DNA from: an uncultured Heliomicrobium sp.
GTDB lineage: Bacteria; Acidobacteriota; Blastocatellia; RBC074
Reading direction: 5' to 3'
DNA: 33,776 nt
NCBI GenBank assembly: GCA_964383955.1
Contig: CAYLJQ010000002.1
Coordinates: 1 to 33,776 of the forward strand
The notes under the pieces were generated by a model that was given only the letters and a program-made list of their open reading frames with translations, did no database searches and was not told the origin of the DNA. The position numbers and the translations under genes were made by a program. Below are positions 6,167 to 33,754 of this stretch, piece after piece (position 1 is the first letter of the stretch; every line of letters starts with the position of its first letter).

Positions 6167-6268
6167 GTAGCGCAGGTTTTCCAACCTGCGTTTGACATTG
6201 CCAAATGCCTTCGGTTCCGCAGACGGCTTTTTCATTCAAATCAGCGCAGGTTGGAAAACCTGCGCTAC
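6167..6268. repeat. 102-nt palindromic element with 24-bp perfect terminal inverted repeats, between TolC and HlyD genes
   Basis: GTAGCGCAGGTTTTCCAACCTGCG (6167-6190) is the exact reverse complement of CGCAGGTTGGAAAACCTGCGCTAC (6245-6268). Each arm is itself a hairpin (CGCAGGTT/AACCTGCG). Confidence 0.8.
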
Positions 6269-6277
6269 CTTTCGGCG

Positions 6278-7990
6278 TTAGCGGCTGGCCAGCGCGACGT
6301 TATTGCTATCCAGTGTGGTAGACATCGCGCGCTGAAGCTCAGCGGCGGCTTTGTTGTAATCGGTCAGCGCCTTCAACTCTCGCCCGCGCGCAGCCGACAA
6401 AGCGTTTTGCCGATCCAGCACGAAGTAGTTTGTCGATTGCCCGGCGTCGAACTTCCGCTGTTCGCTCTGATACTGAAGCTCTGCGTTCGTACGTGAATTC
6501 GCCGCCGCTTCGACTCTGCGCTTGGCGGTTTCGACGGCTTGCAGCGCGTTGCGGACTTCGACTTCGATTTGCTGTTCGGTTCGCTGGCGTTCCGTGTCCA
6601 GCTTTTTGCCTTCGGCCAGTGCGCGACCGTATTGCGCTTTTGCCGTGCGATTGCGCAGCGACAAATTGATCGAAACGCCTACGCGGAACGTGCGATAGTC
6701 GTTGCTGAACATATTGCCCAGGCTCTGCCCGTAATCGCCCAGGAATTTGTCTGGCGTTGCGCCGAAGGAAATCGGCGGCAACGTGGGCAGCCCTGCGAAT
6801 TCGGAAAGCTTGTTGATCCGGTCAAACAGCAGTTGATTGCTTTCGACAATCGGATTGGTTCCCGTCCGCGCCTTGCCCGCCAAGCCAATCGTGCCGTAGC
6901 TGGCAATCAGGTTGATTTCCGGTTTGGTTTGATCGCGAAAATACTGCACATCAATTTTGTTCATCTCCTTGCGCACACGGTATTGCTCCATTTCCTGGCG
7001 GTTGTTGAATGCCATTCGAATCGCGTCATCCACAGGCAAAGCCGGTTCAGGCTTCAATTGCGGTTGTTCGGCAGGAACCAGCGCGGAGTTCCATTGTTCG
7101 CTGCTTCCTGCTGGCAGCATCAACGCCTTCAGGCCGTTTTCGGCGCGCTGAATGGATTCGATGGCGGCTTCGGCTTCATCCACACGGCGTTCGACTTCGA
7201 CGCGGGCAGAAACCACATCCGCCGGAGCCAGCGTGCCTTTCGCAACCAATCGTTCGTTGTGCTCCAGTTGTGTGCGTGCCAGTTCCACCGATTCGCGCTT
7301 GATGTCGGCATCGCGCCGCGCGAAAACCAAATCCCAATACGCGCGTTCCACGCTGGCGATGATTTCTATCGCGCGCTGGCGGAACTGGCTGTCCGAAAGG
7401 TCCAGCCGTTTGCTGGCGATGCGAATCTGGCGGCGTTCGGCATCAATCTGCCGGTTGCGGAAGATTGGCTGCGTGAAATCCACAGATAAGCGCGAAGTGA
7501 ATTGCGGATTCAGCGAATTGAACAGGTTGTCGCTGGTCGCGCGGCTTTGGTCGTAACTGACGCTGACCTGGCCGCCCTGCCACGGCAATCGTTTCGACAG
7601 CGTCGCCGAGCCTGTAAATTCGGTGGTTTGCAGCCGACCGTTTTCACTGCCCATCAGGATCGAAGCCACAGGCGTGTTTTGCCGTTGGTAAACCATGCTG
7701 CTGGTCAACGACGGGTCATAAACGCTTTTGGCAGCGCGCAAATCAAATTCATTCAACTGTGTGTTGATCCGTTCGATTTCGATGTCGCGGTTGTTGTTCA
7801 GCGCCATCATCACGGCGTCGCGCAACGTCAAATTGATCTGTTTGTCGTTGGCAACGCCGACGCGCGGCGCTGGCGTGGGGGGCTGCTGTGCCAGCGCAGA
7901 TGACGATCCCGAAACGGCCAGCACTGCAACAAATACTCCGGATAACCAATTCGCTTTCAGTTTTTCCTGCATCGTGGTTCTTTTAGACAT
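6278..7990 (-). CDS. TolC-family outer-membrane efflux protein
   Basis: 570 aa. Signal peptide ([18 protein letters not shown]). Internally duplicated architecture with long coiled-coil segments and C-terminal motifs typical of outer membrane factor proteins ([15 protein letters not shown]). GGAGGAGG RBS before ATG 7990. Confidence 0.9.
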
Positions 7991-9589: not shown

Positions 9590-9706
9590 AAGGAAGAAAC
9601 CACTGATGGACACAGATCAACACAAATGAGCACAGATCATATTTTCAACTTACCTGTGTCTATCTGCGTGAATCTGTGTTTATCAGTGGTTAAAGCCGCT
9701 TCCTTC
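9590..9706. repeat. Long imperfect palindromic element abutting the stop codon of the sigma-54 activator (possible terminator)
   Basis: AACCACTGATGGACACAGAT (9598-9617) pairs with ATCTGTGTTTATCAGTGGTT (9672-9691) at 18/20 positions. Outer arms AAGGAAG (9590-9596) and CTTCCTT (9700-9706) also pair. CACAGATCA is repeated inside. The spurious ORF 9509..9835 (+) runs through it. Confidence 0.7.
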
Positions 9707-9709
9707 AAC

Positions 9710-12700
9710 TTAGCTTTGGCGTCCAATGCCAAGCTTCTGCATTTTGGATTGCAGGGTGGTGCGCTTCATGCCCAGCCGCGCCGCTGCGCCTTGGGGACCG
9801 CCGACGATCCAGTTGGTTTCTTCCAGCGCGCGTAAGATGTGTTCACGCTCGGCATCATGAAGTGTGGCGAGTTCCGTCACAGGAGCCGGTTCGGAGGATT
9901 TCAATTCGGCCAGGGAAACTTCCAGGCTGTCGCCGCGCGTCAAAATCACAGCGCGCTCGATGAAATGTTCCAGTTCGCGGACGTTGCCCGGCCAGTGGTA
10001 ATTGGTCAGCGCAGTCATAATTTCAGCTGGAATCGAAGTGATTTGTTTTTTCAACCGCCGCGCATATCGCTGCGTGAAAAAACGGGTCAGGGCGGGAATG
10101 TCTTCGCGGCGCTGACGAAGCGGCGGAATCGTAATGGGAAACACATTCAACCGGTAAAACAAATCGCTGCGATACTTTCTATCGGCAACCATTTGTTCCA
10201 GATCGCAGTTGGTGGCGGCAATCAGGCGAACGTCAACTTTTTGTGTGCGCGTGCTGCCCAACCGTTCAAACTCCTGTTCCTGTAAAACGCGCAACAGCTT
10301 CGGCTGCAAATCCAGCGGAATGTCGCCAACTTCATCCAGAAACAGCGATCCGCGATTCGCCAGTTCAAATCGGCCTACGCGCTGCGAAATCGCGCCGGTG
10401 AACGCGCCCTTTTCGTGGCCGAACAACTCGCTTTCCAGCAAGCCGGTGGGAATCGCCGCGCAATTGATTTTGACCAGCGTGCGTTCGCGGCGGTCGCTGA
10501 GGTCGTGAATGGCGCGGGCGATCAATTCCTTGCCGGTTCCGGTTTCACCGCAAATCAGCACCGTGGAGCCAGTTGGCGCAACGGTTTCCACCTGTTTCAA
10601 AATTCGCTTGAAGGTCTGGCTTTCGCCGATCAGTTCTTCGAAATTGTGCTGGGTGCGAATTTCGTCTTCCAGGTACAGCTTTTCGCTGGTCAGTTTGTTT
10701 TTCAGCGCTTCGATTTCGCGGAACGCCAGCGCGTTTTCAACCGCAAGCGCAACCTGATTGGCAACCTGGCAAAGCAATTCTTTCTCATCTTCATTCAGAT
10801 TGGCTTCGCGATAGCTGGCCACCGCCAGCGTGCCCAGCTTGCGTCCGTGCGCGATCAGCGGAACCACACCGCCGGATTTTAGACCTGCGGAGCGGAATCG
10901 GTCGCTAAAACCAGACTGAAACCGCTGCTCATCAATCCGGTCGTGAAAGACCGGTTGCCCGGACATAAAGGCCGAACCACTAAGCGAGCTTTCCAGCGGA
11001 ATCGGCGTTCCCTCTTCAATGGCAAACTGTTTGTCCAGGGATTCGTAGGCATAAGCCCGCAATTGATTGGTGTCAGGATCGTAAAGCGCCAGGCCCACCA
11101 CATCGTGAAGCGAAATTCGGCGCAAAGAAACCGAAATGACCTGGATCAAACTGCGCAAATCAAGTTGCGCCACCATGGCGTTGTTGATTTCCAGCAACAG
11201 CTGCCTGCGGTCTGAGTGGCGATTGGCTTCTTCCTCCGCGGTGCGAATGCGCTCAAAGTTCAACGCATTTTCAACTGCGATGGCGACTTGTCCGGCAATC
11301 TGCATAAAGAGCTCGCCATCGGCTTTGGTAAAGGCGCACTCGGTTTTACTGGCGATGCTCATTGCGCCGATGATGCGGTTTTTCCGTAACAGCGGAACGG
11401 AACAGTTTGCACGAATGCCCTGGCTTACCGCGCGGCGCACCACTTCCGCGGGGAATTGTTTCAGGTAATCCGGCCCCGTAACCACAGGTTGTTTTGTCCG
11501 TATGGCCAAACCAACAGGCGTATCCACCAACGTGGCAATCTGGCCTTCCTGCAAAAAATCTATTTCTTCGCCACGATCCAGCAAGTGCACGCGCAAGATG
11601 TCTTGCTGATCGTCGTACAACCCCATTACGGAGTAATCATGCCGAAACACCTGGCGCAGCGAGGCCGAAACTGCCTGAAACAACGAGGGTAAATCCAGCG
11701 CGGAAGCGATGGCGTTGTTGACCTGTAAAAGCAATTGCAACCTGTCAGATTGACGGTTGGCTTCTTCTTCGGCGGCGCGCGTGCGTTCAAAGTTGAGCGC
11801 GTTTTCCACAGCGATGGCAATCTGATTTGCGCTTTGGCAAAGCAGTTCCCGATCTTCGGCAGAAAACGCAAACGGGCGTTTGCTGGCGACTCCCAATGCT
11901 CCCAGCTTGCGACCGTGCGCAATCAGCGGAATGTTGCAGGCCGACCGCAAACCTGCATTGTATGAACGCCGGGTGAAATCGGAAGGAAACCGTTCCAGGT
12001 CGAATTGATCCAGAAACACAGGCTCTCCCGAAGTATAAGCCACCCCCATGGCGCTGCCTTCCAGTTCGATCAGATAGCTTTCCTCAACCAGATTCATTTG
12101 CTCCGGGAAATCTGTCATGACCACGCGCAGCTTGTTGCTTTCTGGATCGTAAAGCGCAACGCCAGTGGTGTCGTTATGCACTGTTTTCCGCAAGGAGCGC
12201 GAAACAACTTGCAGCAATTCACGCAAATTCAGTTGCGAAACGACGGCATTATTGATTTGCAGCACCGTGCTGAGACGGTCGGACTGGTGCGTCGCCTCCT
12301 GCTCGGCTTCCCGCGCGCGCTGGAAGTTCAACGCATTGTCCACCGCGATGGCAATCTGCCCGGCAATCTGGCCAAGCAACTGTTGATGCTCTTCAGGAAA
12401 CGCATCTTCACGAAAACTGCCCACACCCAGCACGCCGAGCTTGCGGCCATGCACAATTAACGGCACACAACCGCCCGATTCAATTCCCGCTTCGATAAGC
12501 TGCTTATTGAAATCGGAGACGCTGGCTGTAGGGTCAACCCGGTTGTAAAAGATCGGCTGCCCGGAAGTCAGCGCCAATCCACCCAGGCTTCCTTCCATGG
12601 GAACCAGCGTCCCCTGCTGAATAGACAGTCGTTTATCCGGAGAGTCATACGCGTAAGCGCGAAGCTGATTGTTTTTTTCGTCGTATAGCGAAAGTCCGAC

Positions 12701-20646: not shown

Positions 20647-20716
20647 AACCACAAAAAGCACAGAAAACACAAAAAGGCAGGTGGTTTATTTTGTGCCTTT
20701 TGAGCTTTTTGTGGTT
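20647..20716. repeat. Imperfect palindromic A/C-rich element, probable terminator after the isomerase gene
   Basis: AACCACAAAAAGCACAGAAAACACAAAAAGGCA (20647-20679) pairs with TGCCTTTTGAGCTTTTTGTGGTT (20694-20716), with a bulge. It translates into the spurious KAQK / [12 protein letters not shown] 20622..20807. Confidence 0.6.
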
Positions 20717-23210: not shown

Positions 23211-25427
23211 CTACCGAAAATTTTCCATCAGCATGATTTCGTCGTAGGGGTTTTCCAAATGCGCGTAAAGCAGGCGGCGGCCATCGGCTGACAGGGCCAG
23301 CCCAGGCATCCACCAAAGTGGCGCGTCCGTGACCGTGAACAGCGCTGTGGTGCGGCGCGTGTCAAAACTGAAAAACTGGATTGCCCATTCTGATTCGTCC
23401 TTTTTGAGGGGAAAACAAACTCCTTCCTTGACCAGCGCCCACGACCGCCAATACCCCGCCTCCTTCAATTCCGGAACCAGTGTTTCTTCCCCGCCATTGA
23501 CCGGTACGGAATAAATACCGCGAATGCCACGGTCTTTGGAGTAGTAGAACCGCTTGCCGTCCGGCGACTCGAAGCCTTCGAAACCGCCGCTAAAGGTGAT
23601 TTGCCGGGCCTGACCACCGGCAACGGGCATTCTATAAAGCTGGTTACTGCCGGTGCGATTCGATCTGAAATAAACCCATTGCCCGTCGCGCGACCAGGCG
23701 GGCAGATTTTCCGACGACTTATCGGGGGTCAGCCTGCGCGGGGGGCTGTCCCCCGACGCGCTGATCACATAAATATTTCCATCCCCCTCGTCATACGAAT
23801 CAAAGGCAATCCACTGGCCGTCGTAAGACCAGCGCGGTGAACCCGCCGAACCGTCTCGTGTCAGCAGGCGCGCGGCGGTTTTCCCTTCGGCATCACACAT
23901 CCAAAGCCCCTGCCGGCCACTGCGATCCGAAGCAAAAACAATCGTTTCCCCATCCGGCGAAAAGATCGGACTCTGGTCGTCGTAAAGCGAATTCACCGGC
24001 AGTTTGACGGGTGCGCCAAATTTGTCCGGCACCTCGCGGCCCGCAAAGCCCGCGCCCCGATACAGCGACAGGTTTACATCATTGGCATATTCCGTGAAAA
24101 CCAGCTTGCCGCCCTGCCGCGAGATGTCCGGGGTGATTGGATTGCGAGCATTGACGGCCACCCGCGCAGGTGTCCAGCCTTGCACCGAAACGCGCCACAG
24201 CCCGCGTGTGCCCTGGCGCGTGGCGCTAAAGACGATTTCGCGGCTGTCACTGGTCCAGGCCAGACCGGAAATGGCAGTCCGCTCAAAAGTTAATTGTTGC
24301 GGCGTGCCTCCGCTGGCGGGCACGATACAGATGTCCACCTGGTTTTCGCCAAAGTCGCGAAAAAAGGCCACTAGCTTTCCATCCGGTGAAAATTCCGGGA
24401 AATGATCCGCCAGGGACGGCTCCGGTGTGGTCAAGCGGGTGCGCTGGCCTGTTTCCGGATTCACCAGCACGATGCATTGGCCTTCCGCCGACCCAGGGCG
24501 ACCGCTCACCGCCAGCGTTTTGCCATCCGGCGACCAGGACGCCGTCGTGAAGGTTTCCGCCAGCTTTTGCTCCGGCCCGCCACTGGCGGGCACGCGCATC
24601 ACTTCGCCCTTGCCAGATCGTCCGCGCACGAAAGTCACGTATTTGCCGTCCGGCGTCCAGGAGGGGAAATTGTCATTTTCGGGCGCCGTCGTCAGCCGCA
24701 GGGGCGGTTCGTCCGTGCCAATCATCTTGACGTAAATATCGGCGGGGCCGGCCTCCTCGACACGGCCTCCATCCCAGGCAAAGGCAATGCGGCTTTCATC
24801 AGGAGAAATCGCGGCGTGGTCCTTCCGGCCCGCCTGGCCGACCAATGGCACAAACCGCGGTTCGCCCGCCGGTCTTTTCTCCACGCCATTGCGCGCCGCC
24901 AGCCAGCGATAACCGGCAAATCCCAACCCACTTGCCAGCACCAGCGCAAGGGCCAACCCTGTCAGAGAGTGGGCCCGCCACAAGGGCTGTCTGGCGACAG
25001 ATTGCGCGACTGCTTCCAGCGAGCCCGGCTTGTCAGTTTCCTGGCGCTCGCCCGGTACCTTGTTGTCACGCGCCGTCTCAGACCGCCGCGCAGGCTGAGC
25101 ATTGCTGCTGTCGGGCGCGGTCAAATCCAATTGCGCCAGCGCCTCCATACGCGCACGCACGCTCTGGTAACGCTGGTCACGCTCTTTGACCAGCAGCCGG
25201 CTGATGAGTTCCTGCAAAGTGCCGGTCGCCTCGTCAACAAACTGCCGCAGCGGCGGCGGTTCCTTGTCCAGCAGCGCGGCGAAGACTTCGGCAGTGGAAG
25301 AGCCCGCAAAAGCCGGTTCCCCTGTCAACATTTCGTAAAACACTACCCCCAGACTGAACACATCCGTCCGCGCATCCAGCTTCAGCCCGCGCGCCTGCTC
25401 CGGCGACATGTAACGCGGTGTGCCCAT
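23211..25427 (-). CDS. C-terminal fragment of a Ser/Thr kinase: kinase C-lobe, TM helix, TolB-like PD40 beta-propeller
   Basis: Starts exactly at the P+1/APE segment (MGTPRYMSPEQ ... DVFSLGVVFYEMLTGEPAF). TM helix LTGLALALVLASGLGFAGY. Many PD40-type repeats follow (SPDGK.IAF, WSPDGKTLA, FSPDGETIVF, WSRDGQWVYF). Confidence 0.85.
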   Translation of the reverse strand: MGTPRYMSPEQARGLKLDARTDVFSLGVVFYEMLTGEPAFAGSSTAEVFAALLDKEPPPLRQFVDEATGTLQELISRLLVKERDQRYQSVRARMEALAQLDLTAPDSSNAQPARRSETARDNKVPGERQETDKPGSLEAVAQSVARQPLWRAHSLTGLALALVLASGLGFAGYRWLAARNGVEKRPAGEPRFVPLVGQAGRKDHAAISPDESRIAFAWDGGRVEEAGPADIYVKMIGTDEPPLRLTTAPENDNFPSWTPDGKYVTFVRGRSGKGEVMRVPASGGPEQKLAETFTTASWSPDGKTLAVSGRPGSAEGQCIVLVNPETGQRTRLTTPEPSLADHFPEFSPDGKLVAFFRDFGENQVDICIVPASGGTPQQLTFERTAISGLAWTSDSREIVFSATRQGTRGLWRVSVQGWTPARVAVNARNPITPDISRQGGKLVFTEYANDVNLSLYRGAGFAGREVPDKFGAPVKLPVNSLYDDQSPIFSPDGETIVFASDRSGRQGLWMCDAEGKTAARLLTRDGSAGSPRWSYDGQWIAFDSYDEGDGNIYVISASGDSPPRRLTPDKSSENLPAWSRDGQWVYFRSNRTGSNQLYRMPVAGGQARQITFSGGFEGFESPDGKRFYYSKDRGIRGIYSVPVNGGEETLVPELKEAGYWRSWALVKEGVCFPLKKDESEWAIQFFSFDTRRTTALFTVTDAPLWWMPGLALSADGRRLLYAHLENPYDEIMLMENFR

Positions 25428-25444
25428 TACTGCGCCCGCCCCGG

Positions 25445-26260
25445 TCAGGGAAAGAGGGGCGGAGAGATGGAGAGATGGAGGGACGGAGGGACGGAGGGAG
25501 GATCAACGCTCGCCCTGACTCTCAGTCCCGCCAGCCCTCCGTCTCTCCCTCCTTCCATCGGCTTCGCCAGCCCGAAATCCAGCACTTTGACCAGGCCGTC
25601 CGGGCGCAGCATCACATTTTCTGGTTTGATGTCGCGGTGCAGAATGCCTGCTTCGTGCGCCTTGTCGAGCGCAGCGGCAATCTGTCTGACGATGGACAGG
25701 GCCTCGTGCATGGGCAGCCGCCCGCCGGTGAGCCGTTGGCGCAAGGTCACGCCTTCGATAAATTCCATGACGATGTAATGCAACCTGCCACCGGCCATCT
25801 CCGCCTGACCGAAATCGTAAATCGTCAGAATGTTCGGATGATTGAGCGCGCTGGCGGCTTGTGCTTCCCGCTCGAAGCGGCGCAGGCGCGCAGCGTCCTG
25901 CGTGAAAGCCGCGGGCAGCAGCTTGAGCGCGACTTTGCGATGCAACCGCGTATCTTCGGCCAGATACACTTCGCCCATGCCGCCTGTGCCCAGCAGAGAA
26001 AGAATTTGATAATGACTGATGCGTTGGCCGCCGGTGATGGCATGCAGCGGTGGCGTCAGCAACTGCGCTGCGACATTCAGCGCAGGCGCGGCCAAAAAGC
26101 TGTCTGACTGCGCATCGTGCGCCAGCAGCGATTCAACTTCGCGCCGCAATTCGCCGTCGCCCGCGCAGGCTTGATCCAGAAAGGCGGCGCGCTGACTCGG
26201 CGTCAATTCGATTGCGGCTTGGTGCAACCGGGTGATTTGTTGATAGCGTTCGGGTGTCAT
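25445..26260 (-). CDS. N-terminal fragment of the same Ser/Thr kinase (regulatory leader plus N-lobe through DFG), ending in repeat-encoded P/S/L-rich tail
   Basis: I prefer ATG 26260 (MTPERYQQITRLHQAAIEL...), 16 nt after the sigma-factor stop. Motifs GTGGMGEVY, VALKLL, HRDIKPEN, DFGLAK (DFG at 25571-25579). Reading then runs into the repeat element and stops at TGA 25445-25447. Confidence 0.85.
   Translation of the reverse strand: MTPERYQQITRLHQAAIELTPSQRAAFLDQACAGDGELRREVESLLAHDAQSDSFLAAPALNVAAQLLTPPLHAITGGQRISHYQILSLLGTGGMGEVYLAEDTRLHRKVALKLLPAAFTQDAARLRRFEREAQAASALNHPNILTIYDFGQAEMAGGRLHYIVMEFIEGVTLRQRLTGGRLPMHEALSIVRQIAAALDKAHEAGILHRDIKPENVMLRPDGLVKVLDFGLAKPMEGGRDGGLAGLRVRASVDPPSVPPSLHLSISPPLFP
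25461..25561. repeat. 101-nt palindromic 8-mer-repeat element interrupting the kinase activation-loop coding region
   Basis: The plus strand carries five tandem 8-mers: GGAGAGAT x2, GGAGGGAC x2, GGAGGGAG (25461-25500). After a ~34-nt spacer comes an inverted, related pyrimidine arm CCCTCCGTCTCTCCCTCCTTCCATC (25535-25559). Confidence 0.75.
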
Positions 26261-26276: not shown

Positions 26277-26849
26277 TTATGAGGATAGTTCGCGGTGTAG
26301 CCAGGCGCGTGCCGTGCGCCAGTCTCGCATGACAGTGCCGGGCGAAACACCCAAGACTTCGGCAGTTTCCTCCACGCTCAAACCGCCGAAAAAACGCAAC
26401 TCAATGATCTGGCTTTGCCGGGCGTCCAGTTGCGCCAGGGTCGTCAGGGCATCATCCAGGGCGACCAAATCCAGCGGACGTTCGACCGGCGTAGCCTGCG
26501 CCCCGGTGAGCGAAACAAAAATGGCGTCGCCGCCGCCGCGTTTCTGACTGTCGCGGGCGCGGGCGAAATCCACCAGAATCTGACGCATCAATCGCGCCGA
26601 CACACCGAAGAAATGGGCACGGTTTTGCCAGTCCACCGCTTGCGCGTCGGCCAGCCGCAAAAAGGCCTCGTTGACCAGCGCAGAGGTTTGCAACACAACT
26701 TCGCCCGCTTGTTCGCGCGCCAGATGCCGCCGCGCCAACTGATGCAGTTCCTGGTACACCAGCGGGGTCAACCGTTCGAGCGCCGACGCATCGCCAGCGC
26801 GCCAGGCCTGTAACAAGCGTGTGATTTCCTGGGGAGCCAGTTTTTCCAT
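26277..26849 (-). CDS. ECF-type RNA polymerase sigma factor, TIGR02999-like (kinase-associated ECF group)
   Basis: 190 aa. Characteristic N-terminus ITRLLQAWRAGDASALERLTPLVYQELHQLARRHLARE. Region 2 motif ALVNEAFLRL, then WQNRAHFFGVSARLMRQILVDFARAR. Region 4 motif IELRFFGGLSVEETAEVLGVSPGTVMRDWRTARAWL. Confidence 0.9.
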   Translation of the reverse strand: MEKLAPQEITRLLQAWRAGDASALERLTPLVYQELHQLARRHLAREQAGEVVLQTSALVNEAFLRLADAQAVDWQNRAHFFGVSARLMRQILVDFARARDSQKRGGGDAIFVSLTGAQATPVERPLDLVALDDALTTLAQLDARQSQIIELRFFGGLSVEETAEVLGVSPGTVMRDWRTARAWLHRELSS

Positions 26850-27076
26850 GAGTGTTGTTTGCCGTCGCTGGATAGGACACGGGTACTATACCAGCGAACG
26901 CCCGGTTCCGCAGCGCTTCCAGCGGCCCACAGGATGGAGTCAGCACATGACCGAAAAAAATTCCAAAGCCGTTGTAGTTCCCGCCCAATTTTTCCGCATA
27001 TCTGTAGTAGGGGAGAAAAAACGGCGTCATGCCATGTCAGGTCTCCCTTGATTCCCATCGCCAAGGAAGCGTGCTT

Positions 27077-30000
27077 ATGCCCAAAAATATCGTGGTCCAA
27101 TTCAGGTTTGCCAGTTTACGTCACCGGAAATCGTCTTTGCTTGTTTTGCTGGTGCTGGGTGTGCTGGCGTCGTCAGCCCTCGCCGGTCTTGGCTTGCGCG
27201 GGCCATCCGCATTTTCGTCCGCCAGAGCGGCAAGTAAAAGACTATTAAAGGCGCTGGTCCCTGCGGCGACTCCACGCGCAGCGTTAGCGACGGTCAGTGA
27301 AGTGGAACCGAATAATACGACGGCACAGGCTGACGGCGCCCCGGTACAACTCACCGGCGCAACGGACGTGACGGGTTCAATTGGTACAGTTGGGGATATG
27401 GATGTCTTCAAACTCAGCCTGTCACAAGGCAGAGTGATTGCTTTTGAAGTCTTTGATGCCACTGGCACGGATTGCCTGACCATCGCCACCACGCTGCGAA
27501 TTTTGGATGGCGGCGGGGTCACGATTGCATCCGCCAACTCAGGTTCGGGCATCAACGCCTGTTCGGCACTGACGTGGATGCTGAATGCCGGAACTTATTA
27601 CGTTCGAGTGGAACAAAGCACGAATTCCGCGACGATCCCGGCCTACTTGCTTCGCGTCAAGTTTTTGACCGATCTGGGCAGCGAGGTAGAACCGAACGAT
27701 ACATCCGCCACCGCCACGGCCTTTAACAGTTCCGATGCCTATATTTTTGGCAACCACCAAACCGTTACTGACACTGATTACTATGCTTTGACTGTAGCCG
27801 ATGGCACTTCGCTGAAACTCGAACTCATCGAAGGCGATCAGGCGGTTGAAACCTGCGAAAGCAATGGAGTGGATTCGATCCTGACCCTTTTCGATGCCAA
27901 CGGCACGGCGCTGGGAACCGATAACGATGGCGGGCGGGGTGCCTGCTCGCAAATTGACGGACGCGGGGCGACGCCTACCAACAGTTTTGCCCACAATCTG
28001 GCGGCGGGAACGTATTCCATCCGGGTGACCTCGCCGACCCCCGCGCAAGCACCGGAAAATCAATTCATTTATCGTCTGGTCGTGCAAACGCTGGTCATTC
28101 CGCCGCTCAGCTTGCTGGTGGATAACACCAGCGACGATGGAAGCAAAACAGCTTGCGATTCCAATGTGGCGAACGATTGTTCCTTGCGCGGGGCGCTCGC
28201 CCGCGCCAACGGCTCGGCGGGTAACGACACGATTAGTTTTGATCCGACCATCTTTGCTTCCGCCCAGACCATCTCCCTCACCAACGGCGAACTGGTTGTT
28301 GCCAACAATGGAAGGCTCACCATTAACGGACCGGGTGCGAACCTGCTGACCGTGCAGCGCAGCACGGCGCAGGGCACGCCGAACTTCCGCCTCTTCACAA
28401 TCAACGCCAACACAGAAGTCAACCTCAACGGCCTGACGATCACGGGTGGGCGGACTGTGGACGGGCCGAATGGAGACGCCGCAACCCGAGGGGGCAACGG
28501 CGACAACGGCGGCGGGATTCATAATTCCGGGAGCTTGGCGCTGAGCAACGTTATCGTTACCGGCAACCGCACTGGCATTGGCGGCCAGAGTTCCCGCGCA
28601 GGCGGCAACGGCGGCGATGGCGGCGGGATTTACAACAGCGGCACGCTGACCGTCAGCAACAGCGCCCTGCTAAACAATGTCACCGGCAATGGCCGCGATT
28701 TCGGCGGCAACAGCGGCAGAGGTGGCGGGATTTACAACAGCGGTGCGTTAACTGTCAGCAACAGCACGTTCGAGGGCAATAGGACCGGCAATGGCGGCGA
28801 CAATGGCGGCGCGGGCGGCGACGGTGCAGGGATTTACAACGCTGGCACGCTGAGCGCTGCCAACAGCACATTCCAGGGCAATTTCACCGGGAATGGCCAG
28901 GGCCAAAACAGCAGCATGAGCAGCAACGGCGGCAGCGGCGGGGGAATTTACAACGCCAACACACTGAGCCTGACCAATTGCACCCTGAGCGCCAATTCCA
29001 CTGGGAGTGCCGGAAATGTAATCCCCGGTTTTGGCGCGGCTGGCAATGGGGGCGGCATCTTCAATGGCAATAACGCAAGTAGCAGCACAATCAGGAACAC
29101 CATCGTTGCCCTCAACACGACTGCCGGTACGGGCCCCGACCTTTCCGGCGGCTTCACTTCGCTCGGCTACAATCTGATTGGCGATAATTCCGGCGCGACG
29201 CTCACCCCGACCTTGGGCAATAAGATCGGCACCAGCGCCAGTCCAATTGATCCCAGGCTCGGCGCGCTCGCCAGTCACGGCGGCCCGACGCAAATCCTGC
29301 GGCTCTTGTTTGGTTCTCCCGCCATTGATGCGGGCGACGATTGCGTAGCGGATGCGGCGCATTGCGGTGACGCGAATCTCGCGCAACTCACCACCGATCA
29401 ACGCGGCGCAGGCTTCCCGCGCAAATTCGGCGCGCAGGTAGACATCGGCGCGGTCGAGGCGGACTACACGCTCGTGGCCACGGGCGGCACGCCTCAATCC
29501 ACCATCATCAACAGCAACTTCAGTACTCCCTTACAGGCCACCCTGACCGGCTTTGGGGGTTCGGTTGCCGGCGAGACCATCAGTTTCACCGTGCAGCCCG
29601 CCGGCAATGGCGCCAGCATCGCCCCCTCAACCACTATAAATGTCACCACGAACGGTTTAGGACAGGCGAATGTGACCGTGGCGGCGAATACGATTGCCGG
29701 TGGCCCGTATCTGGTAGCGGCCAGCATTGGCAACCTGAGCGATACCTTCACGCTGACCAATACCTGCCCCGGCTTTGCGATGAGTCTGCCCACCGCGACA
29801 GGCACGTTGGGCCAGACTTATCACAGTTCCGTCGTCGCCACGCCGTCGGTGAGCGCACCGTTGAGCTACCATTATGCGCTGGCAAACAACACGGCGCTGC
29901 CCGCCGGGTTGACGCTGGACGCCAACACTGGCGCCGTCAGCGGCACGCTGAATACGCCGGGCAACGTCAGCTTCGACATCCAGGCGCAGTTGTTCAACAG

Positions 30001-33000
30001 CAGCACGTCGACAGGCTGCGCGGTGACGCAGAGTTTCAGCATCAATGTCACCTGCGTGACGAACCCAGTGGTGACGAATACGAATGACAGCGGCGCGGGC
30101 AGCTTGCGCGAAGCGATTGCCACGGCCTGTCCCGGCAGCACGATTACATTTGGTCTTCCGGCGAACTTGACGATTACGCTGACGTCGGGCGAACTGGCGC
30201 TCAACAAAAATCTGACGATTCAAGGGCCGGGGGCGCGACTGCTCACCGTGAGCGGCAACAATGCCTCACGCGTCTTCTTAATTCCCGTCGGCGTGACGGC
30301 GATTATCAACGACTTGACGGTCACGGGCGGCAATGGGGTTGGTGATAACAGTGGCCTCGGCGGCGGCATTCGCAATTGGGGCAGCTTGACGCTCAACCGC
30401 AGCGCCGTTTCGGGCAACACGGCGACTTTCTTCGGCGGCGGCATTCAAAATCTTGCAGGCGGCACGCTGACCTTGCATCAGAGCACGATCTCCGGCAATC
30501 GCACCGATTCAAACGGCGGCGGCGGCGGGATTGAGAACTCCGGTACGCTGCTGGTGATCAACTCGACCATCAGCGGCAACCAGGCCAACAACAGTGGCGG
30601 CGGCAGTGGTGGAGGCATCTGGACTGGCGGTCCAGTCACGCTTGTCAACAGCACCATCACGGGCAACGCGGCGGCTGGGCCAGGCAGCACGGGCGGCCTT
30701 TATCGTAGTGGTAATGCCGTCGTCACACTCAAGAACACCATCATTGCGGGCAACACCAGCACCAGCAACACCTGGGCGGATGTCAGGAGTTCGTCCAGTT
30801 CGGGCTTTAACTCTCAGGGCTATAACCTGATCGGGCAGAACGACAGCGCGGAGACGTTCTTCCCGCCGGGCAACCCGAACGCCAACCAGGACCGGGTCGG
30901 CACGTCCGGCTCCCCTCTCAACGCCCTGCTCACCTCGTTGCAGAACATCGGCGGCCCGACCGATACACACTGCCCACTGCCCGGCTCCCCTGCCATCAAT
31001 GCCGGTAACAACTGCGTGCTGGTGGACAACGGCTGTGGCAATAACGATCCGGCGCTGATCACCGATCAACGTGGATTCAATCGTCAGGTTGGCAGCGCCG
31101 TGGACATCGGCGCGTTTGAATCGCGCGGATTCACGCTTGCCGTCAGCAGCGGCGACAAGCAAAGCACCATCGCCGGTACGGCCTTCGCCAATCCCTTGAC
31201 CGTGACAGTAACTTCCGCCAGCGCAGAGCCGGTGGACGGCGGACAGGTCGTCTTCACACCGCCGGGCGTTGGTGCCAGCGCAAACATCGCGGGCCTTCCG
31301 GCGACAATCATCGCAGGCACGGCAATCACCGGAACCGTCACCGCCAACGAGATTACCGGTTCGTACTTCGTGATCGCCAGCGCCAACGGTGCGGCTGCGG
31401 ACGTGAATTTCAGTCTGACAAACATTCCTCCAAACTCGGCTCCGACGTTCACACCCGCCACAGCCATCAGCCGTCAGCAAGGCAGTCCGGCTGGCAATGC
31501 CACGACCATCGGCATGGTCAACGACCTGGAAACCGCTCCCGGTTCGCTGACCATTACGCAAGTCGCGGGCGGTACAGCCACAGGCATCACCGTCAGCAAC
31601 ATCACCAACAAGGGAGGAACCATTACGGCGCAGATCAGCGCTTCCTGTACAGCCGTTGAAGGCACTGTTCGCTTCCAGGTGTCGGATGGCAGCTTGACCG
31701 GCACGGGCGAGTTGATGGTCAGCGTGACCGCGAATGCGGTCCCGACAATCGCTTACGGCAATGTCACCGTGGCCGTTGGAGCTTCCACCACCAACAGCCC
31801 GACCACTGCAACTGACAATGGCTCCATCACCGGTTACAGCGTGCAGCCTGCAAAAACCTTCAGCGGAGCGCTTTCGGTGGATGCCGCCGGGCTGGTTTCC
31901 ATCAGCAATGCCGCGCCGGTTGGAACTCACACGATCACGATCCGCGCGACTGACAATTGCAATGCCTCGTCGGATGCAAGCTTCACACTGACCGTGACGA
32001 ACTCCGCACCGAGTATCACGACGCAAACCGGCCTGACGCGGCAACAAGGCGCGGCGGCTTCCAATTCGCAGATTGCGACCGTCAAGGATTCCGAAAGCGG
32101 CGGCAAGGGCGTGACTGTCACCGTCAATGGCGGACCTTCCGCGACGGTCAACGGCGTGACGGTGTCTGGCATCGCCAATTCCGGCGGCACGGTCACGGCG
32201 AACATCGCCGCCACCTGCGGAGCTTCCAACGCCAGCTTCACCCTGACCGCGACAGATGGAAATGGCGCAACAGCGACGGCAACCCTGAGCATCGCAGTAA
32301 CCGGCATCACGGTGAATCCGGCGAAACTGCTCAACGGGCTGACCTTCGCCCCTTACACCGAAACCTCGTCCGCAACAGGCGGAACCGGTTCGTATACGTT
32401 CAGTCTGGCTTCAGGAAGTCTGCCCGCCGGATTGACGCTCAACGGCAACCTGATTGTTGGAACGCCGACGACCGCCGGAGCTTCTACCTTCACCATCCGC
32501 GCCGATGACGATGCCAACACCTGCTTTGGCGAACAGACTTACACCATCAACATCGGCAGCACTGGCTTGATGTATTACCCGCTGGCGCGGCCTGTGCGCT
32601 TGCTGGACACGCGGCCCGGTGCCAGTCCCAACGCCTGCTTCCAACCCAACGCGCCGATTGCGGGCGGAACTTCGCGGCTGCAACCGGCTCGCGGAACTTG
32701 CGAAGGCCTGAACATTCCGGCCAACGCGACAACCATCACCGGGCACATCACCACAGTGCAATCCGGCGGAGGCTTCCTGACGCTCTATCCCAGCGATGCT
32801 CCGCAGCCGATGGTCACAAACTCCAATTACCTGCCGAATGAAATCCTGAACAACGCCTTCACCGTCGGCCTCGGAGCCAGCGACGGCGCGTTCAAGCTTT
32901 TCGTCAGCTCAAACACGGACGTAGTCATTGACGTGACCGGTTATTACGCGCCGCCGTCAGCAAGCGGCCTGTACTTCCATCCGCTGCCGAAACCGATTCG

Positions 33001-33754
33001 GTTGCTGGAAACGCGGACGGGCTTCAGCGGATGCCAGACACCGGGAGCGCCTTTGCAAACCGCAACCACGCGGACGCAAACCGGCGTGTTGACCTGCGAC
33101 GGCGTGACCATCCCAACGGGAGCGCTGGCACTGGTCGGCAACGCAACAACGACGAATTCAACGGGAAGCGGCTACCTGACGCTGTGGCCAGCGGACGCCG
33201 TGCAACCGTTCGCATCGAGCTCGAACTTCGCGGCGGGCATCAACCGCAACGCGCCTTTCACTGTTGGGCTTTCGCTGAACGGAGAGTTCAACATTTACAC
33301 AGCGCGAACGACGGACTTGGTGATTGACGTGATGGGCTACTACAGCACTGAGGCCAACGATGCGAACGGCCAAGGCCTGCTGTTCAACTCACTTGGTTCG
33401 CCGTTGCGGCTGCTTGACACCAGAGCCGCCCAATCGGCTTGTTACCAACCCGGCGCACCGATGACCGGAGGCACGGTCTATACGCAAGAGACGCAAATCC
33501 CCTGCACGAATCTGACGCCGACAGCACGAGGTCTGGTTGGCAACGTCTCTGCACTCAACGCGAGCGCGAACGGCTACCTGACCTTCTGGCCTAGCAACGC
33601 CCCGCAACCAACCGTGGCGACTTCGAATTACCAGACCGGCAGAGTCTTCAACCGCCACTTCACCGTCGGATTGGGAACAGACGCAGCCTTCAAGCGCTTC
33701 GCCGCTTCCAACACCGACGTCATCATTGATATCTCAGGCTTCTTCGCCCCTTGA
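27077..33754 (+). CDS. Giant secreted multidomain protein: signal peptide, 2 PPC-like domains, 2 parallel beta-helix (choice-of-anchor-Q / PMP-repeat-like) modules, Ig-like domains, 3 C-terminal repeats
   Basis: I prefer ATG 27077 (AAGGAAG RBS; MPKNIVV...LLVLLVLGVLASSALAG). EVEPNN/EVEPND...D(M/T)D(V/Y)(F/Y) PPC-like units at ~27299-28090. Modules at ~28111-29465 and ~30056-31125 start with CSLRGAL / GSLREAI, carry repeated GGGI(Y/H/F/R/Q/E/W)N turns and end in GSPAIDAG...DQRG...DIGA(V/F)E. LPAGLTL(D/N) putative-Ig units. Confidence 0.88.
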   Translation: MPKNIVVQFRFASLRHRKSSLLVLLVLGVLASSALAGLGLRGPSAFSSARAASKRLLKALVPAATPRAALATVSEVEPNNTTAQADGAPVQLTGATDVTGSIGTVGDMDVFKLSLSQGRVIAFEVFDATGTDCLTIATTLRILDGGGVTIASANSGSGINACSALTWMLNAGTYYVRVEQSTNSATIPAYLLRVKFLTDLGSEVEPNDTSATATAFNSSDAYIFGNHQTVTDTDYYALTVADGTSLKLELIEGDQAVETCESNGVDSILTLFDANGTALGTDNDGGRGACSQIDGRGATPTNSFAHNLAAGTYSIRVTSPTPAQAPENQFIYRLVVQTLVIPPLSLLVDNTSDDGSKTACDSNVANDCSLRGALARANGSAGNDTISFDPTIFASAQTISLTNGELVVANNGRLTINGPGANLLTVQRSTAQGTPNFRLFTINANTEVNLNGLTITGGRTVDGPNGDAATRGGNGDNGGGIHNSGSLALSNVIVTGNRTGIGGQSSRAGGNGGDGGGIYNSGTLTVSNSALLNNVTGNGRDFGGNSGRGGGIYNSGALTVSNSTFEGNRTGNGGDNGGAGGDGAGIYNAGTLSAANSTFQGNFTGNGQGQNSSMSSNGGSGGGIYNANTLSLTNCTLSANSTGSAGNVIPGFGAAGNGGGIFNGNNASSSTIRNTIVALNTTAGTGPDLSGGFTSLGYNLIGDNSGATLTPTLGNKIGTSASPIDPRLGALASHGGPTQILRLLFGSPAIDAGDDCVADAAHCGDANLAQLTTDQRGAGFPRKFGAQVDIGAVEADYTLVATGGTPQSTIINSNFSTPLQATLTGFGGSVAGETISFTVQPAGNGASIAPSTTINVTTNGLGQANVTVAANTIAGGPYLVAASIGNLSDTFTLTNTCPGFAMSLPTATGTLGQTYHSSVVATPSVSAPLSYHYALANNTALPAGLTLDANTGAVSGTLNTPGNVSFDIQAQLFNSSTSTGCAVTQSFSINVTCVTNPVVTNTNDSGAGSLREAIATACPGSTITFGLPANLTITLTSGELALNKNLTIQGPGARLLTVSGNNASRVFLIPVGVTAIINDLTVTGGNGVGDNSGLGGGIRNWGSLTLNRSAVSGNTATFFGGGIQNLAGGTLTLHQSTISGNRTDSNGGGGGIENSGTLLVINSTISGNQANNSGGGSGGGIWTGGPVTLVNSTITGNAAAGPGSTGGLYRSGNAVVTLKNTIIAGNTSTSNTWADVRSSSSSGFNSQGYNLIGQNDSAETFFPPGNPNANQDRVGTSGSPLNALLTSLQNIGGPTDTHCPLPGSPAINAGNNCVLVDNGCGNNDPALITDQRGFNRQVGSAVDIGAFESRGFTLAVSSGDKQSTIAGTAFANPLTVTVTSASAEPVDGGQVVFTPPGVGASANIAGLPATIIAGTAITGTVTANEITGSYFVIASANGAAADVNFSLTNIPPNSAPTFTPATAISRQQGSPAGNATTIGMVNDLETAPGSLTITQVAGGTATGITVSNITNKGGTITAQISASCTAVEGTVRFQVSDGSLTGTGELMVSVTANAVPTIAYGNVTVAVGASTTNSPTTATDNGSITGYSVQPAKTFSGALSVDAAGLVSISNAAPVGTHTITIRATDNCNASSDASFTLTVTNSAPSITTQTGLTRQQGAAASNSQIATVKDSESGGKGVTVTVNGGPSATVNGVTVSGIANSGGTVTANIAATCGASNASFTLTATDGNGATATATLSIAVTGITVNPAKLLNGLTFAPYTETSSATGGTGSYTFSLASGSLPAGLTLNGNLIVGTPTTAGASTFTIRADDDANTCFGEQTYTINIGSTGLMYYPLARPVRLLDTRPGASPNACFQPNAPIAGGTSRLQPARGTCEGLNIPANATTITGHITTVQSGGGFLTLYPSDAPQPMVTNSNYLPNEILNNAFTVGLGASDGAFKLFVSSNTDVVIDVTGYYAPPSASGLYFHPLPKPIRLLETRTGFSGCQTPGAPLQTATTRTQTGVLTCDGVTIPTGALALVGNATTTNSTGSGYLTLWPADAVQPFASSSNFAAGINRNAPFTVGLSLNGEFNIYTARTTDLVIDVMGYYSTEANDANGQGLLFNSLGSPLRLLDTRAAQSACYQPGAPMTGGTVYTQETQIPCTNLTPTARGLVGNVSALNASANGYLTFWPSNAPQPTVATSNYQTGRVFNRHFTVGLGTDAAFKRFAASNTDVIIDISGFFAP
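32567..33751 (+). repeat. Three tandem copies of a ~127-130-aa uncharacterised domain at the C-terminus of the giant protein
   Basis: Units at ~32567-32955, ~32965-33346 and ~33374-33751. Shared pattern: P(V/I/L)RLL(D/E)TR ... C.(Q/T)P(N/G)AP ... C ... G(F/Y)LT(L/F)(Y/W)P ... P..(S/T)(S/N)N(Y/F) ... FTVGL ... (T/N)TD(V/L)(V/I)IDV.G(Y/F)(Y/F). Confidence 0.8.

Follow-up and report, generated by a model that had tools for sequence, protein, structure and literature searches.

Organization of the locus

The window, i.e., the whole stretch of 33,776 nucleotides analyzed in this study (contig CAYLJQ010000002.1 of an uncultured member of the Blastocatellia), carries on its minus strand an ECF sigma factor-linked Ser/Thr kinase gene, which encodes a kinase domain and a PD40 beta-propeller and which is cut between the DFG motif and GTPRYMSPE. 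The break sits inside an element of roughly 100 nt (about 86 to 101 nt), in which five tandem 8-mers face a complementary arm. The features of the locus, all on the minus strand, are the following:

26277..26849 (-), ECF sigma factor gene, 190 aa, directly upstream of the kinase (Pfam PF07638 Sigma70_ECF, 182.8 bits)
25445..26260 (-), N-terminal kinase ORF, 271 aa: an N-terminal region and subdomains I-VII through DFGLAK, followed by out-of-frame translation of the repeat and a premature stop
25535..25559 (-), purine-rich 5′ arm of the hairpin, coding strand GATGGAAGGAGGGAGAGACGGAGGG: inverted repeat of 25 nt, 88% complementary, folds
25499..25534 (-), spacer (loop) between the arms, 36 nt; the frame of the downstream gene has a TGA within GTTGATCC
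25474..25498 (-), pyrimidine-rich 3′ arm, coding strand CCCTCCGTCCCTCCGTCCCTCCATC, belonging to the 8-mer array
25461..25476 (-), perfect tandem duplication, plus strand GGAGAGAT x2 (16 nt), lying for the most part beyond the best-matched arms
25445..25447 (-), premature TGA stop of the N-terminal half, where the conserved loop codons CTG ACC (Leu-Thr) are read out of frame
23211..25427 (-), C-terminal ORF, 738 aa: kinase subdomains VIII-XI, linker, hydrophobic stretch and PD40 (TolB-like) beta-propeller

The N-terminal half (26260..25445) ends with ...VLDFGLAKPMEGGRDGG...SISPPLFP* and matches positions 1-151 of the 263 positions of the Pfam Pkinase model (PF00069) with 112.3 bits, while the C-terminal half (25427..23211) begins with MGTPRYMSPEQ and matches positions 159-253 with 43.6 bits (cut-off in both cases 31.7). 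The C-terminal half additionally contains the PD40 domain (167 bits, Pfam) and can be aligned with orthologues from end to end; its hydrophobic stretch is probably a transmembrane segment. From the coverage of the Pkinase model by both halves, the cut falls between subdomains VII and VIII and thus within the activation segment, in agreement with what the initial annotation had read from the ends of the two ORFs. With its Pkinase score and all catalytic motifs (HRDIKPEN, DFG and MSPE, as read from the translations) the gene qualifies as a Hanks-type Ser/Thr kinase, but it lacks one uninterrupted frame. DFG and GTPRYMSPE are 137 nt apart and in different frames, with a TGA in between, and this stop of the N-terminal half lies 17 nt upstream of the conserved Met of VMGTPRYMSPEQ. 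In comparison with three orthologues, both halves exhibited a dN/dS of 0.17-0.25, a measure that is blind to a recent relaxation of constraint, and no second lesion was found in either half.

The start of the kinase follows the sigma factor gene after 17 nt, and the same order of both genes is common to the loci L084, L086, L088, L089, and L214. No anti-sigma factor is present among the neighbouring Pfam calls. When inspected by eye, the sigma factor has QTSA in place of the DAED motif of other ECF sigma factors (VLQTSALVNEAF versus the expected DAEDLVQEAF). ECF43-type sigma factors are described as lacking DAED and as being activated by a neighbouring kinase (PMC8999054). As read by eye, the QTSA-bearing region 2.2 appears consistent with this description, and by analogy the kinase of the window may activate its adjacent sigma factor in the same way.

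Anatomy of the repeat hairpin

On the plus strand, positions 25461-25500 consist of GGAGAGAT twice, GGAGGGAC twice and GGAGGGAG, corresponding to 8-nt units of the GTCCCTCC and CATCTCTC types on the coding strand. The array thus comprises 2+2+1 imperfect units with two perfect copies of each duplicated unit. Both this array and the inverted arm at 25535-25559, as delineated in the initial annotation, were recovered, the former by TRF with a period of 8 and 5.8 copies (25454-25499) and the latter as the inverted repeat with 88% complementarity. In shuffles of the window, the expected count of the 24-nt array is 0. Inverted repeats with at least 22 matches in 25 positions and loops of 3-60 nt occur twice in the window and were absent from 30 dinucleotide-shuffled windows. 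Compared with dinucleotide shuffles, the folding energies gave weak z-scores of -1.9 as RNA and -1.3 as DNA, because shuffled sequence of purine-rich and pyrimidine-rich composition pairs well too; the support for the structure therefore comes from the inverted-repeat test and not from the energy.

A search against Rfam 15 yielded nothing at the gathering threshold. The matches below it were confined to microRNA-precursor models (18-41 bits versus thresholds of 47-168) and are generic matches to long hairpins. The hairpin has no T-tail of an intrinsic terminator, and the sole terminator-like match in 25200-25800 lies elsewhere. An intron or intein was ruled out by the size of about 100 nt and by the different frames of both halves.

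Removal of any one of the 8-nt units results in a single ORF of 1014 codons from 26263 (1013 aa from the ATG at 26260), and the earlier proposal that the loss of one unit would join both ORFs without an intervening stop was hence correct. One of the two GGAGAGAT copies at 25461..25476 is a candidate for the extra unit, as deletion of either restores the frame. The removal of the complete 101 nt (25461-25561), which had been suggested as a second way to restore the frame, does also yield a single ORF (983 aa); its boundary is, however, arbitrary, since the loop of the nearest relative re-aligns with the window only from CTG ACC (Leu-Thr) on.

Inserts in the activation loops of related kinases

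The relatives of the window kinase are full-length single ORFs of about 1000 aa from Blastocatellia with up to 72% identity. In the comparison of orthologous kinases that the initial annotation had suggested, their activation loop lies within one uninterrupted ORF, and an arrangement of two conserved ORFs, which would characterize a genuine split gene, was seen in none of them. About 20 of the 120 homologues listed have loops of 33-49 residues, most others having 17-27. The composition of the long loops is that of a translated hairpin with a purine arm and a pyrimidine arm, i.e., 15-30 residues between DFG and the P+1 loop, which are first rich in Gly/Glu/Arg/Asp and then in Pro/Ser/Leu. The underlying DNA consists of tandem 7- or 8-mers from at least three unit families, which are in frame and translated. 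At L088, for example, about nine GGAGGGAC-type units face (GTCCCTCA)n (z = -7), at L089 (AAGGATG)n faces (TTCATCC)n (z = -5.3), and the syntenic orthologues L086 and L084 exhibit GGAGAGAC/GGAGGGAC arrays. The GGAGGGAC unit is also present in the loop of a paralogue with 45% identity, and in-frame translated palindromic inserts occur in P0002, P0009, P0053, L108, and others. Among the matches listed, none of 102 other kinase loops was out of frame; this background survey was derived from a scan of a genome collection with the kinase alignment, which matched generic kinase motifs, and represents a broad sample of Acidobacteriota rather than close orthologues.

On a loop-masked neighbour-joining tree without bootstrap support, the insert types were patchily distributed and close sisters differed in the presence of an insert. 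A single ancestral insertion was therefore rejected, and the distribution implies a repeated gain or turnover at the activation loop. The nearest relative of the window kinase (P0016, L214) has a plain loop of 22 residues without any element. In the lineage of this relative the same locus (L213) has undergone a deletion of about 3 kb, joined at a 9-nt overlap between two matched segments, which has taken the sigma factor gene and the N-terminal half of the kinase. An interpretation of L213 as a contig folded back at the loop was rejected in favour of this deletion, and loss of the locus therefore appears to be tolerated.

Occurrence of the hairpins outside kinase loops

Hairpins of like types were found between genes at L012, L030, and L037, together with more than 20 further intergenic cases built from other repeat units. 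This type of hairpin is common in the intergenic DNA of Acidobacteriota and scattered through their genomes, with most copies between genes. Further copies of the 101-mer, which the initial annotation had envisaged, were not present within the window; hairpins sharing the repeat unit do exist on other contigs, but their loop sequences are unrelated and no internal sequence is conserved. In a metagenome scan for GGAGRGAY x3, which gives no copy numbers, most of the loci listed were plain purine arrays whose contexts were unrelated, and a facing arm was present in 17 of the 120 loci listed, one of the 17 being situated in another kinase loop (L108). The unit number of related arrays differs widely between loci (2 to more than 20). 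This variation suggests that slippage occurs over evolutionary time.

Sequence of the junction in other assemblies

Base for base, the Logan assemblies of SRR13208889 and SRR13208890 agree with the NCBI record across the junction, and the identical frameshifted product of 271 aa was also called in SRR13208906. All three runs stem from a single study and hence probably represent the same population. Every retrieved assembly spanning the junction exhibited the OFF state. In SRR12762292, which contains a strain with 99.7% identity, the contig ends ahead of the junction. Logan assemblies are built with k-mers of k = 31. The perfect repeat of only 16 nt is shorter than this, which makes an error by collapse or expansion unlikely. 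The two 90% clusters of the window kinase are singletons.

Origin of the frameshift

The kinase gene of the window probably represents a recent null allele, i.e., a young pseudogene, that arose through slipped-strand duplication of one 8-nt unit in the tandem-repeat hairpin. Hairpin elements have repeatedly come to occupy the coding region of the activation loop in ECF sigma factor-associated Ser/Thr kinases, where their length is normally a multiple of three and where they are translated. Relative to the minimal loop assumed in the initial annotation, the extra DNA of the window element amounts to 101 nt instead of 93 nt, most likely because strand slippage at the hairpin's edge duplicated one GGAGAGAT unit. 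The frameshift would let the protein end after subdomain VII and would thereby sever the catalytic N-lobe from the C-lobe and the propeller, so that the adjacent ECF sigma factor would lose a kinase by which it might otherwise be phosphorylated and activated. As relatives carry in-frame translated elements, it would be the difference of one 8-nt unit, and not the presence of the element, that breaks the gene. The in-frame insert would have come first and the 8-nt slip second. The predicted loss of kinase function is read from the sequence, and the C-terminal half could in principle re-initiate at the ATG 17 nt past the stop.

As the nearest relative (P0016) has a normal loop of 22 residues, the element could also have arrived already out of frame. 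In this case an element with a length that is not a multiple of three would have landed in the loop, or replaced a part of it, and the gene would have been broken at the insertion without any in-frame stage. The gain of inserts is evidently recurrent in this kinase family, which fits such an event. Yet, the arms are already diverged (88% complementarity) and the 8-nt duplication is still perfect, so that the two would seem to differ in age and to stem from separate events, and among the loci listed all other copies seen in kinase loops are in frame. Furthermore, no target-site duplication was recognizable by eye at the borders of the element. Disruption at the insertion itself is thus rather unlikely. 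The related proposal of a MITE-like insertion that made a pseudogene holds in so far as the window element is a copy of a dispersed hairpin repeat and the gene most likely a null allele. However, a target-site duplication was not evident by eye, the copies have no conserved internal sequence in common, and, as relatives carry elements of this kind in frame and translated, its presence would not be what breaks the gene.

A reversible, phase-variable switch, as considered in the initial annotation, would require that gain and loss of 8-nt units toggle the kinase and thereby the regulon of the ECF sigma factor, with the window representing the OFF state. The frame arithmetic of this proposal is right and the mechanism possible: eight is not divisible by three, and the loss of one unit or, arithmetically, the gain of two reopens the frame without an intervening stop. 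The otherwise intact and historically constrained gene, as well as the variation of related arrays between loci, would also be in line with a switch. Nevertheless, the 2+2+1 imperfect units with perfect repeats of 16 nt are far below the tracts of classical contingency loci, and all assemblies covering the junction are identical and OFF. An in-frame variant was absent from both 90% clusters as well as from a homologue search in 5.8 billion clustered proteins. In four clusters of insert-bearing kinases, formed at 90% identity, the loop length was constant, and the absence of out-of-frame loops among the 102 matches listed does not point to switching either. A switch at this locus therefore appears improbable.

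An artefact of sequencing or assembly in low-complexity, hairpin-forming sequence, with the true gene being in frame, is very improbable. In its favour, hairpins and repeats are notorious for causing such errors, a single study supplied all the data, and a different kinase is found in several pieces on one contig (P0158, P0160, P0163), which may reflect either assembly error or decay. Against the assembly error that the initial annotation had listed, the NCBI record is identical to the separately assembled Logan runs, the perfect repeat of 16 nt fits well within a single read, and an error of exactly one whole unit is atypical of short reads.

There is hardly any reason to assume that the gene is functional despite its split, be it by recoding (-1 frameshift or ribosomal bypass) to full length or by reassembly of separate halves: although the needed frame change is -1, a strong hairpin is present and the gap of just 17 nt between stop and ATG makes translational coupling conceivable, no X_XXY_YYZ heptamer was seen by eye between the TGA in GTTGATCC and the stop of the N-terminal half (about 25447-25510), the hairpin lies upstream and not downstream of any possible shift site, the ATG is not preceded by a Shine-Dalgarno-like motif and encodes the conserved Met of VMGT, and no relative shares a conserved two-ORF arrangement. 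A programmed -1 frameshift was hence rejected (all three frames inspected by eye), as were a prfB-like +1 shift, which goes in the wrong direction, and a bypass of the gene-60 type, for which matched take-off and landing codons are missing.

Relevance of the hairpin elements

Taken alone, the frameshift that probably inactivated the window kinase would constitute an ordinary young pseudogene. Its context is less ordinary, as about 20 kinases of uncultured Blastocatellia and other Acidobacteriota contain translated DNA hairpins in the very segment that controls kinase activation. If this holds, in-frame "selfish DNA in genes" would occur beyond Rickettsia, from which it is known, in a major phylum of soil bacteria and there in a regulatory hot spot of signalling proteins. 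The kinase family would then offer a test case for the effect of such inserts on kinase regulation as well as for the origin and spread of facing-array hairpins. Kinase calls that are split at such loops should accordingly be annotated as frameshifts by unit number rather than as two genes. A limited literature search for inverted tandem-repeat hairpins in Acidobacteria and for a wider class of such elements yielded no description. It would be a bold assumption, and one of low probability, that hairpins of facing 7-9-nt arrays form an undescribed self-propagating or self-generating class of Acidobacteriota, which repeatedly colonizes the loops of ECF sigma factor-linked kinases and produces ON and OFF states by slippage, the window kinase being one OFF state caught by sequencing in a contingency system that serves environmental signalling. 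If true, these hairpins would preferentially colonize the loops and lead to hypervariable translated inserts, with units of 7 or 8 nt, which are not multiples of three, conferring slippage-prone ON/OFF behaviour.

Among known systems, the Rickettsia palindromic element (RPE), which is inserted in frame, comes closest. According to a summary of Ogata et al. (2000) in PMC10969869, RPEs are short palindromic elements that occur between and inside genes, where they are in frame and translated. As far as this summary goes, they resemble the present elements in length (about 100-150 nt), in being palindromic, in occurring both intergenically and intragenically, and in comprising several families; like the inserts of the relatives, they add an in-frame extra peptide at apparently tolerated protein sites (PMC10969869). 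Unlike the RPE families, which are summarized there as having a conserved consensus and a conserved peptide, the elements of Acidobacteriota consist of variable 7-9-nt arrays with a non-conserved loop and a low-complexity peptide. Their recurrence at one site, the activation loop of kinases, is not part of what that summary describes for RPEs. The window copy furthermore differs from the in-frame RPEs portrayed there in being 8 nt out of register, and the host phylum is Acidobacteriota instead of the genus Rickettsia.

MITEs and the palindromes of the REP and BIME type are, like the present element, small, hairpin-forming, non-coding, dispersed, and mostly intergenic, and they can be situated at the ends of genes and now and then interrupt an ORF or become fused to it (PMC10969869; PMC3733652). 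Inverted arms are present in the window element, whereas no flanking direct repeat was visible at its borders by eye and no conserved terminal inverted repeats around a conserved core are evident. REPs and BIMEs, which are associated with a RAYT transposase, are imperfect palindromes of 20-40 nt, are extragenic and have a GTAG/CGTC head, in contrast to the intragenic window element of about 86-101 nt, whose arms start with GATGG. With the contingency loci of, for example, Haemophilus and Neisseria, where phase varies by slipped-strand mispairing (PMC12721329), the window tract has in common an intragenic unit whose length is not a multiple of three, so that each gain or loss of a unit changes the frame. 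However, classical contingency loci exhibit long perfect tracts and length heterogeneity within populations (PMC12721329), whereas the window has two perfect copies per unit and the assemblies and clusters exhibited no heterogeneity in tract length. The heptamer arrays of cyanobacteria and Beggiatoaceae (TAACTGA, PMC4679880; heptamer SSRs, PMC4692102) are likewise dispersed, mostly intergenic and built from family-specific units across genomes. These arrays are direct and usually located upstream of start codons, with one inverted case (PMC4679880), while the elements described here consist of facing complementary arrays that form a hairpin.

A kinase gene split within its activation segment

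The Ser/Thr kinase gene, which had been described in the initial annotation as one kinase domain divided between two ORFs, was confirmed to be encoded in two pieces:

26260-25445, minus strand: upstream kinase ORF, 271 residues, ending ...VLDFGLAKPMEGGRDGGLAGLRVRASVDPPSVPPSLHLSISPPLFP*
25427-23211, minus strand: downstream kinase ORF, 738 residues, beginning MGTPRYMSPEQ

According to Pfam, the first ORF covers positions 1-151 of the Pkinase model (263 positions) and the second, which continues into PD40 beta-propeller repeats, positions 159-253; this partition places the cut within the activation segment. An ECF sigma gene (PF07638) is located 5′ of the kinase and ends 17 nt from the kinase start. 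The gene order sigma, kinase, penicillin amidase, AP endonuclease-like gene, small kinase and SMC-like gene is common to the window and the contigs L084 and L086, and, judged from this synteny, their kinases P0006 and P0009 can be regarded as positional orthologues of the window kinase. 3′ of the syntenic block, gyrB contains an intein in L084 (18853-23057; Intein_splicing and LAGLIDADG Pfam hits) and none in L086 (18744-21281). A tandem repeat with a period of 102 nt (28601-28851; 2.5 copies, 75% matches) was found in the window inside an ORF of 2241 residues (27029-33754), which encodes Gly/Asn-rich repeats.

The suggested check for an uninterrupted kinase in orthologues was carried out by searching 5.8 billion clustered proteins. 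This yielded full-length relatives of about 1000 residues, all single ORFs and annotated by their sources as Blastocatellia or Acidobacteriota kinases. None of the clustered proteins was closer than 72% identity, the top value, and at the 90% level both the N-half and the C-half cluster as singletons.

The DNA between the halves is as initially described, with TRF and an inverted-repeat search in agreement. On the plus strand, 25461-25500 reads GGAGAGAT twice, GGAGGGAC twice and GGAGGGAG (period 8, 5.8 copies), and an arm at 25535-25559 is 88% complementary to 25474-25498. Deletion of 25461-25561 or of any one 8-nt unit rejoins the ORFs, as had been proposed, and gives single open frames of 983 and 1013 residues, respectively. 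This repeat hairpin is not a chance occurrence: shuffles of the window give an expectation of zero such arrays, and the real window contains two inverted repeats of this quality (at least 22/25 matches), while 30 dinucleotide shuffles of it gave none. The fold z-scores of the element (-1.9 as RNA, -1.3 as DNA) are weak evidence if taken alone, because shuffled purine-rich and pyrimidine-rich sequence pairs well too. The second of these inverted repeats (6167-6270) consists of a 24-nt sequence with the palindromic core GTAGCGCAGGTTTTCCAACCTGCG that recurs in inverted orientation about 55 nt away; it starts with GTAG, looks REP/BIME-like and lies in the spacer of two minus-strand genes (4934-6148 and 6278-7990).

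Translated repeat hairpins in related kinases

The novelty lies in the context, the recurrence of translated repeat hairpins in the activation loops of Acidobacteriota kinases, and not in the frameshift as such; no description of such hairpins was found in the literature searched. In most of the 120 listed relatives DFGLAK and GTPRYMSPE are 17-27 residues apart, while about 20 exhibit a spacing of 33-49 residues. These long loops have a G/E/R/K/D-rich first and a P/S/L/F-rich second half, as in the following examples:

KDEGGRMKDEKDADSQLHPSSFIPHPS
GKTDGETERREVGESIIALSLRPSFSPS
RQRDRGTERWRDGGMEGQRDGETLSLYPSVPQSLSPSVS
LRIADCGLRIEENETPALIPSDNPQSAIRNPQS

Their DNA shows that the inserts are translated hairpins built of tandem repeats.

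Repeat hairpins in kinase loops, with fold z-scores against mononucleotide shuffles
L088 (P0053), paralogue, 45% identical: about nine GGAGGGAC-type 8-mers facing (GTCCCTCA)n; z -7.0
L089 (P0002), orthologue, 72% identical: (AAGGATG)n facing (TTCATCC)n; z -5.3
L086 (P0009), syntenic orthologue: GGAGAGAC units, with the opposite pyrimidine arm decayed; z -1.2
L084 (P0006), syntenic orthologue: expanded purine array only; z -0.1

The unit in L088 is the window's own. In a background sample of Acidobacteriota kinase loops all 102 were in frame, and an insert of this kind was present only in L052, where (GCGGAAN)n faces (AATCCGC)n; compared with this sample, an out-of-frame loop is restricted to the window and its identical copies.

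On a neighbour-joining protein tree (loop masked, no bootstrap) the three repeat-unit families are interleaved and close sisters differ. P0004 is of the 7-mer type, P0006 and P0009 of the 8-mer type, and inserts are present in P0017, P0053, P0046 and P0023 and absent from their respective sisters P0011, P0050, P0044/P0049 and P0024/P0026. This indicates that inserts have probably been gained or replaced repeatedly inside one tolerant loop. A single ancient insertion does not agree with these two features of the tree, nor a nucleotide-precise target site with the insert starts, which vary from one to four codons past DFGLAK with no fixed nucleotide. The window's nearest neighbour on the tree, P0016, has a plain loop of 22 residues, and its DNA does not realign with the window before the codons CTG ACC (Leu-Thr).

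Origin of the frameshift and its consequences

The split kinase is a young frameshift allele, correctly observed and ordinary in itself. Its simplest history would be an in-frame insert, followed by slippage duplication of one GGAGAGAT unit. Compared with the loop left by the 101-nt deletion, the window contains 101 extra nt, where the in-frame figure is 93, and two GGAGAGAT units form a perfect tandem duplication (25461-25476) which lies mostly beyond the best-matched arms on the coding strand (inverted-repeat pair I4; folds). The arms have already diverged, their complementarity being 88%. The new frame meets a TGA formed by the conserved Leu-Thr codons, 17 nt ahead of the conserved Met in VMGTPRYMSPEQ, where the kinase would be terminated. 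Both halves are otherwise intact, with dN/dS values of 0.17-0.25 for each against three orthologues, which makes the lesion young by comparison with these divergences.

Disruption at the moment of insertion, with no prior in-frame stage, would fit with P0016 lacking the element, and is considered unlikely. The proposed reversible slipped-strand ON/OFF switch appears rather improbable: the 8-nt arithmetic does permit frame toggling, as had been stated, but each tract is short and imperfect, the OFF state alone was seen, in-frame variants are absent from the record, and loop lengths are constant inside four 90%-identity clusters of insert-bearing kinases. A misassembled junction, also proposed initially, is very unlikely. 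The Logan assemblies of SRR13208889 and SRR13208890 equal the window at 100% over 8 and 15 kb with the junction covered, and SRR13208906 encodes the exact 271-residue frameshifted product too; as these runs apparently come from one study, they probably represent one population. The longest perfect repeat has 16 nt, which is below the Logan k-mer of 31 and far below read length, and a copy-number error in assembly is therefore unlikely. Recoding or a functional split gene, for which no signal was found in the window kinase or its relatives, is the least credible explanation.

ECF43-type sigma factors lack a DAED motif and are activated via phosphorylation by the adjacent kinase (PMC8999054; PMC13147305). 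The window's sigma factor, a candidate member of this type, has QTSA at the DAED position and, by analogy, would be expected to be left inactive by loss of the kinase. In SRR16980155, the orthologous locus of the P0016 lineage (99% identical) exhibits a deletion of about 3 kb (L213 1376-4504 versus L214 1-6162), which takes out the ECF sigma gene and the N-half of the kinase; the matched segments share 9 nt, with the breakpoint falling within activation-loop codons. This suggests that the sigma-kinase locus is dispensable. Other lesions were observed in P0127, P0129, P0130 (P0006 cluster), P0132 (P0014 cluster), P0158, P0160, P0163 (P0047 cluster). Lesions in the family include 341-residue internally deleted versions on long contigs, a 19-residue tandem duplication in one protein, and one kinase that is split into three calls within a single 36-kb contig. 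In this large paralogous family, gene decay or assembly indels appear to be frequent.

Facing-array hairpins outside kinase loops

The facing-array architecture is common outside genes. A de novo scan of about 1 Mb of Acidobacteriota loci revealed over 20 hairpins in which arrays of 7-9-nt units face each other, mostly intergenic and with many distinct unit sequences; some families occur in two copies per locus or are common to several genomes of Pyrinomonadaceae/Blastocatellia. A limited literature search found no published account of this class in Acidobacteria.

L030 and L037, sigma-kinase spacer: 7-mer family (GGATGAR)n hairpins
L012, directly past the kinase stop codon: 7-mer family (GGATGAR)n hairpin
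L012 5191-5264, 5749-5847, 6373-6467: intergenic hairpins
L013 4018-4156; L016 9014-9106, 9868-9944: intergenic hairpins
L030 5903-5989; L037 5893-5977, 10885-11048, 12283-12350: intergenic hairpins
L040 11332-11508, 12798-13007, and others besides: intergenic hairpins
Window 20647-20716: second hairpin, CACAAAAAG-type 9-mers facing their complement

The second window hairpin lies between the end of the AP-endonuclease-like gene (near 20629) and the start of the penicillin amidase gene (near 20746), and the corresponding spacer in the syntenic L084 and L086 contains a different palindromic element. In L084, a nested palindrome of about 200 nt with repeated CGCTCCGTAGGAGCG-type units (9690-10010) fills the sigma-kinase spacer, which in the window measures only 16 nt. 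A metagenome scan with three GGAGRGAY units was dominated by plain arrays; among the matches listed, a facing arm was present in 17 of 120 loci. The examined ones appear to be mostly intergenic, and in L108 the hairpin lies inside the activation loop of another kinase.

The closest analogue in mode of action is the Rickettsia palindromic element, which PMC10969869 describes as selfish palindromic DNA that is inserted in frame and translated. Unlike the elements described there, those found here have arms of tandem-repeat arrays, lack a conserved consensus sequence, reside in Acidobacteriota and recur at one regulatory loop. MITEs, REPs and heptamer repeat arrays (PMC4679880, PMC4692102) share single features with the element, and simple-sequence contingency loci with the window tract, outside the definition of each class. 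Copies with a common unit have unrelated hairpin-loop sequences, and the borders of the window element show, by eye, no target-site duplication, which does not fit a classical MITE with a conserved core; of the suggested MITE-like pseudogene, a probable null allele is retained and the classical MITE is not.

All frames of the 8-mer unit and of its complement are free of stop codons, and an in-frame copy is therefore translatable in any register. On a Bryobacteraceae contig (L076 8197-8394), (GACGCGGA)n pairs with (TCTCCGCG)n in a hairpin whose spacer measures about 130 nt; this hairpin sits in a stop-free frame of 684 residues and may be another in-frame intragenic copy.
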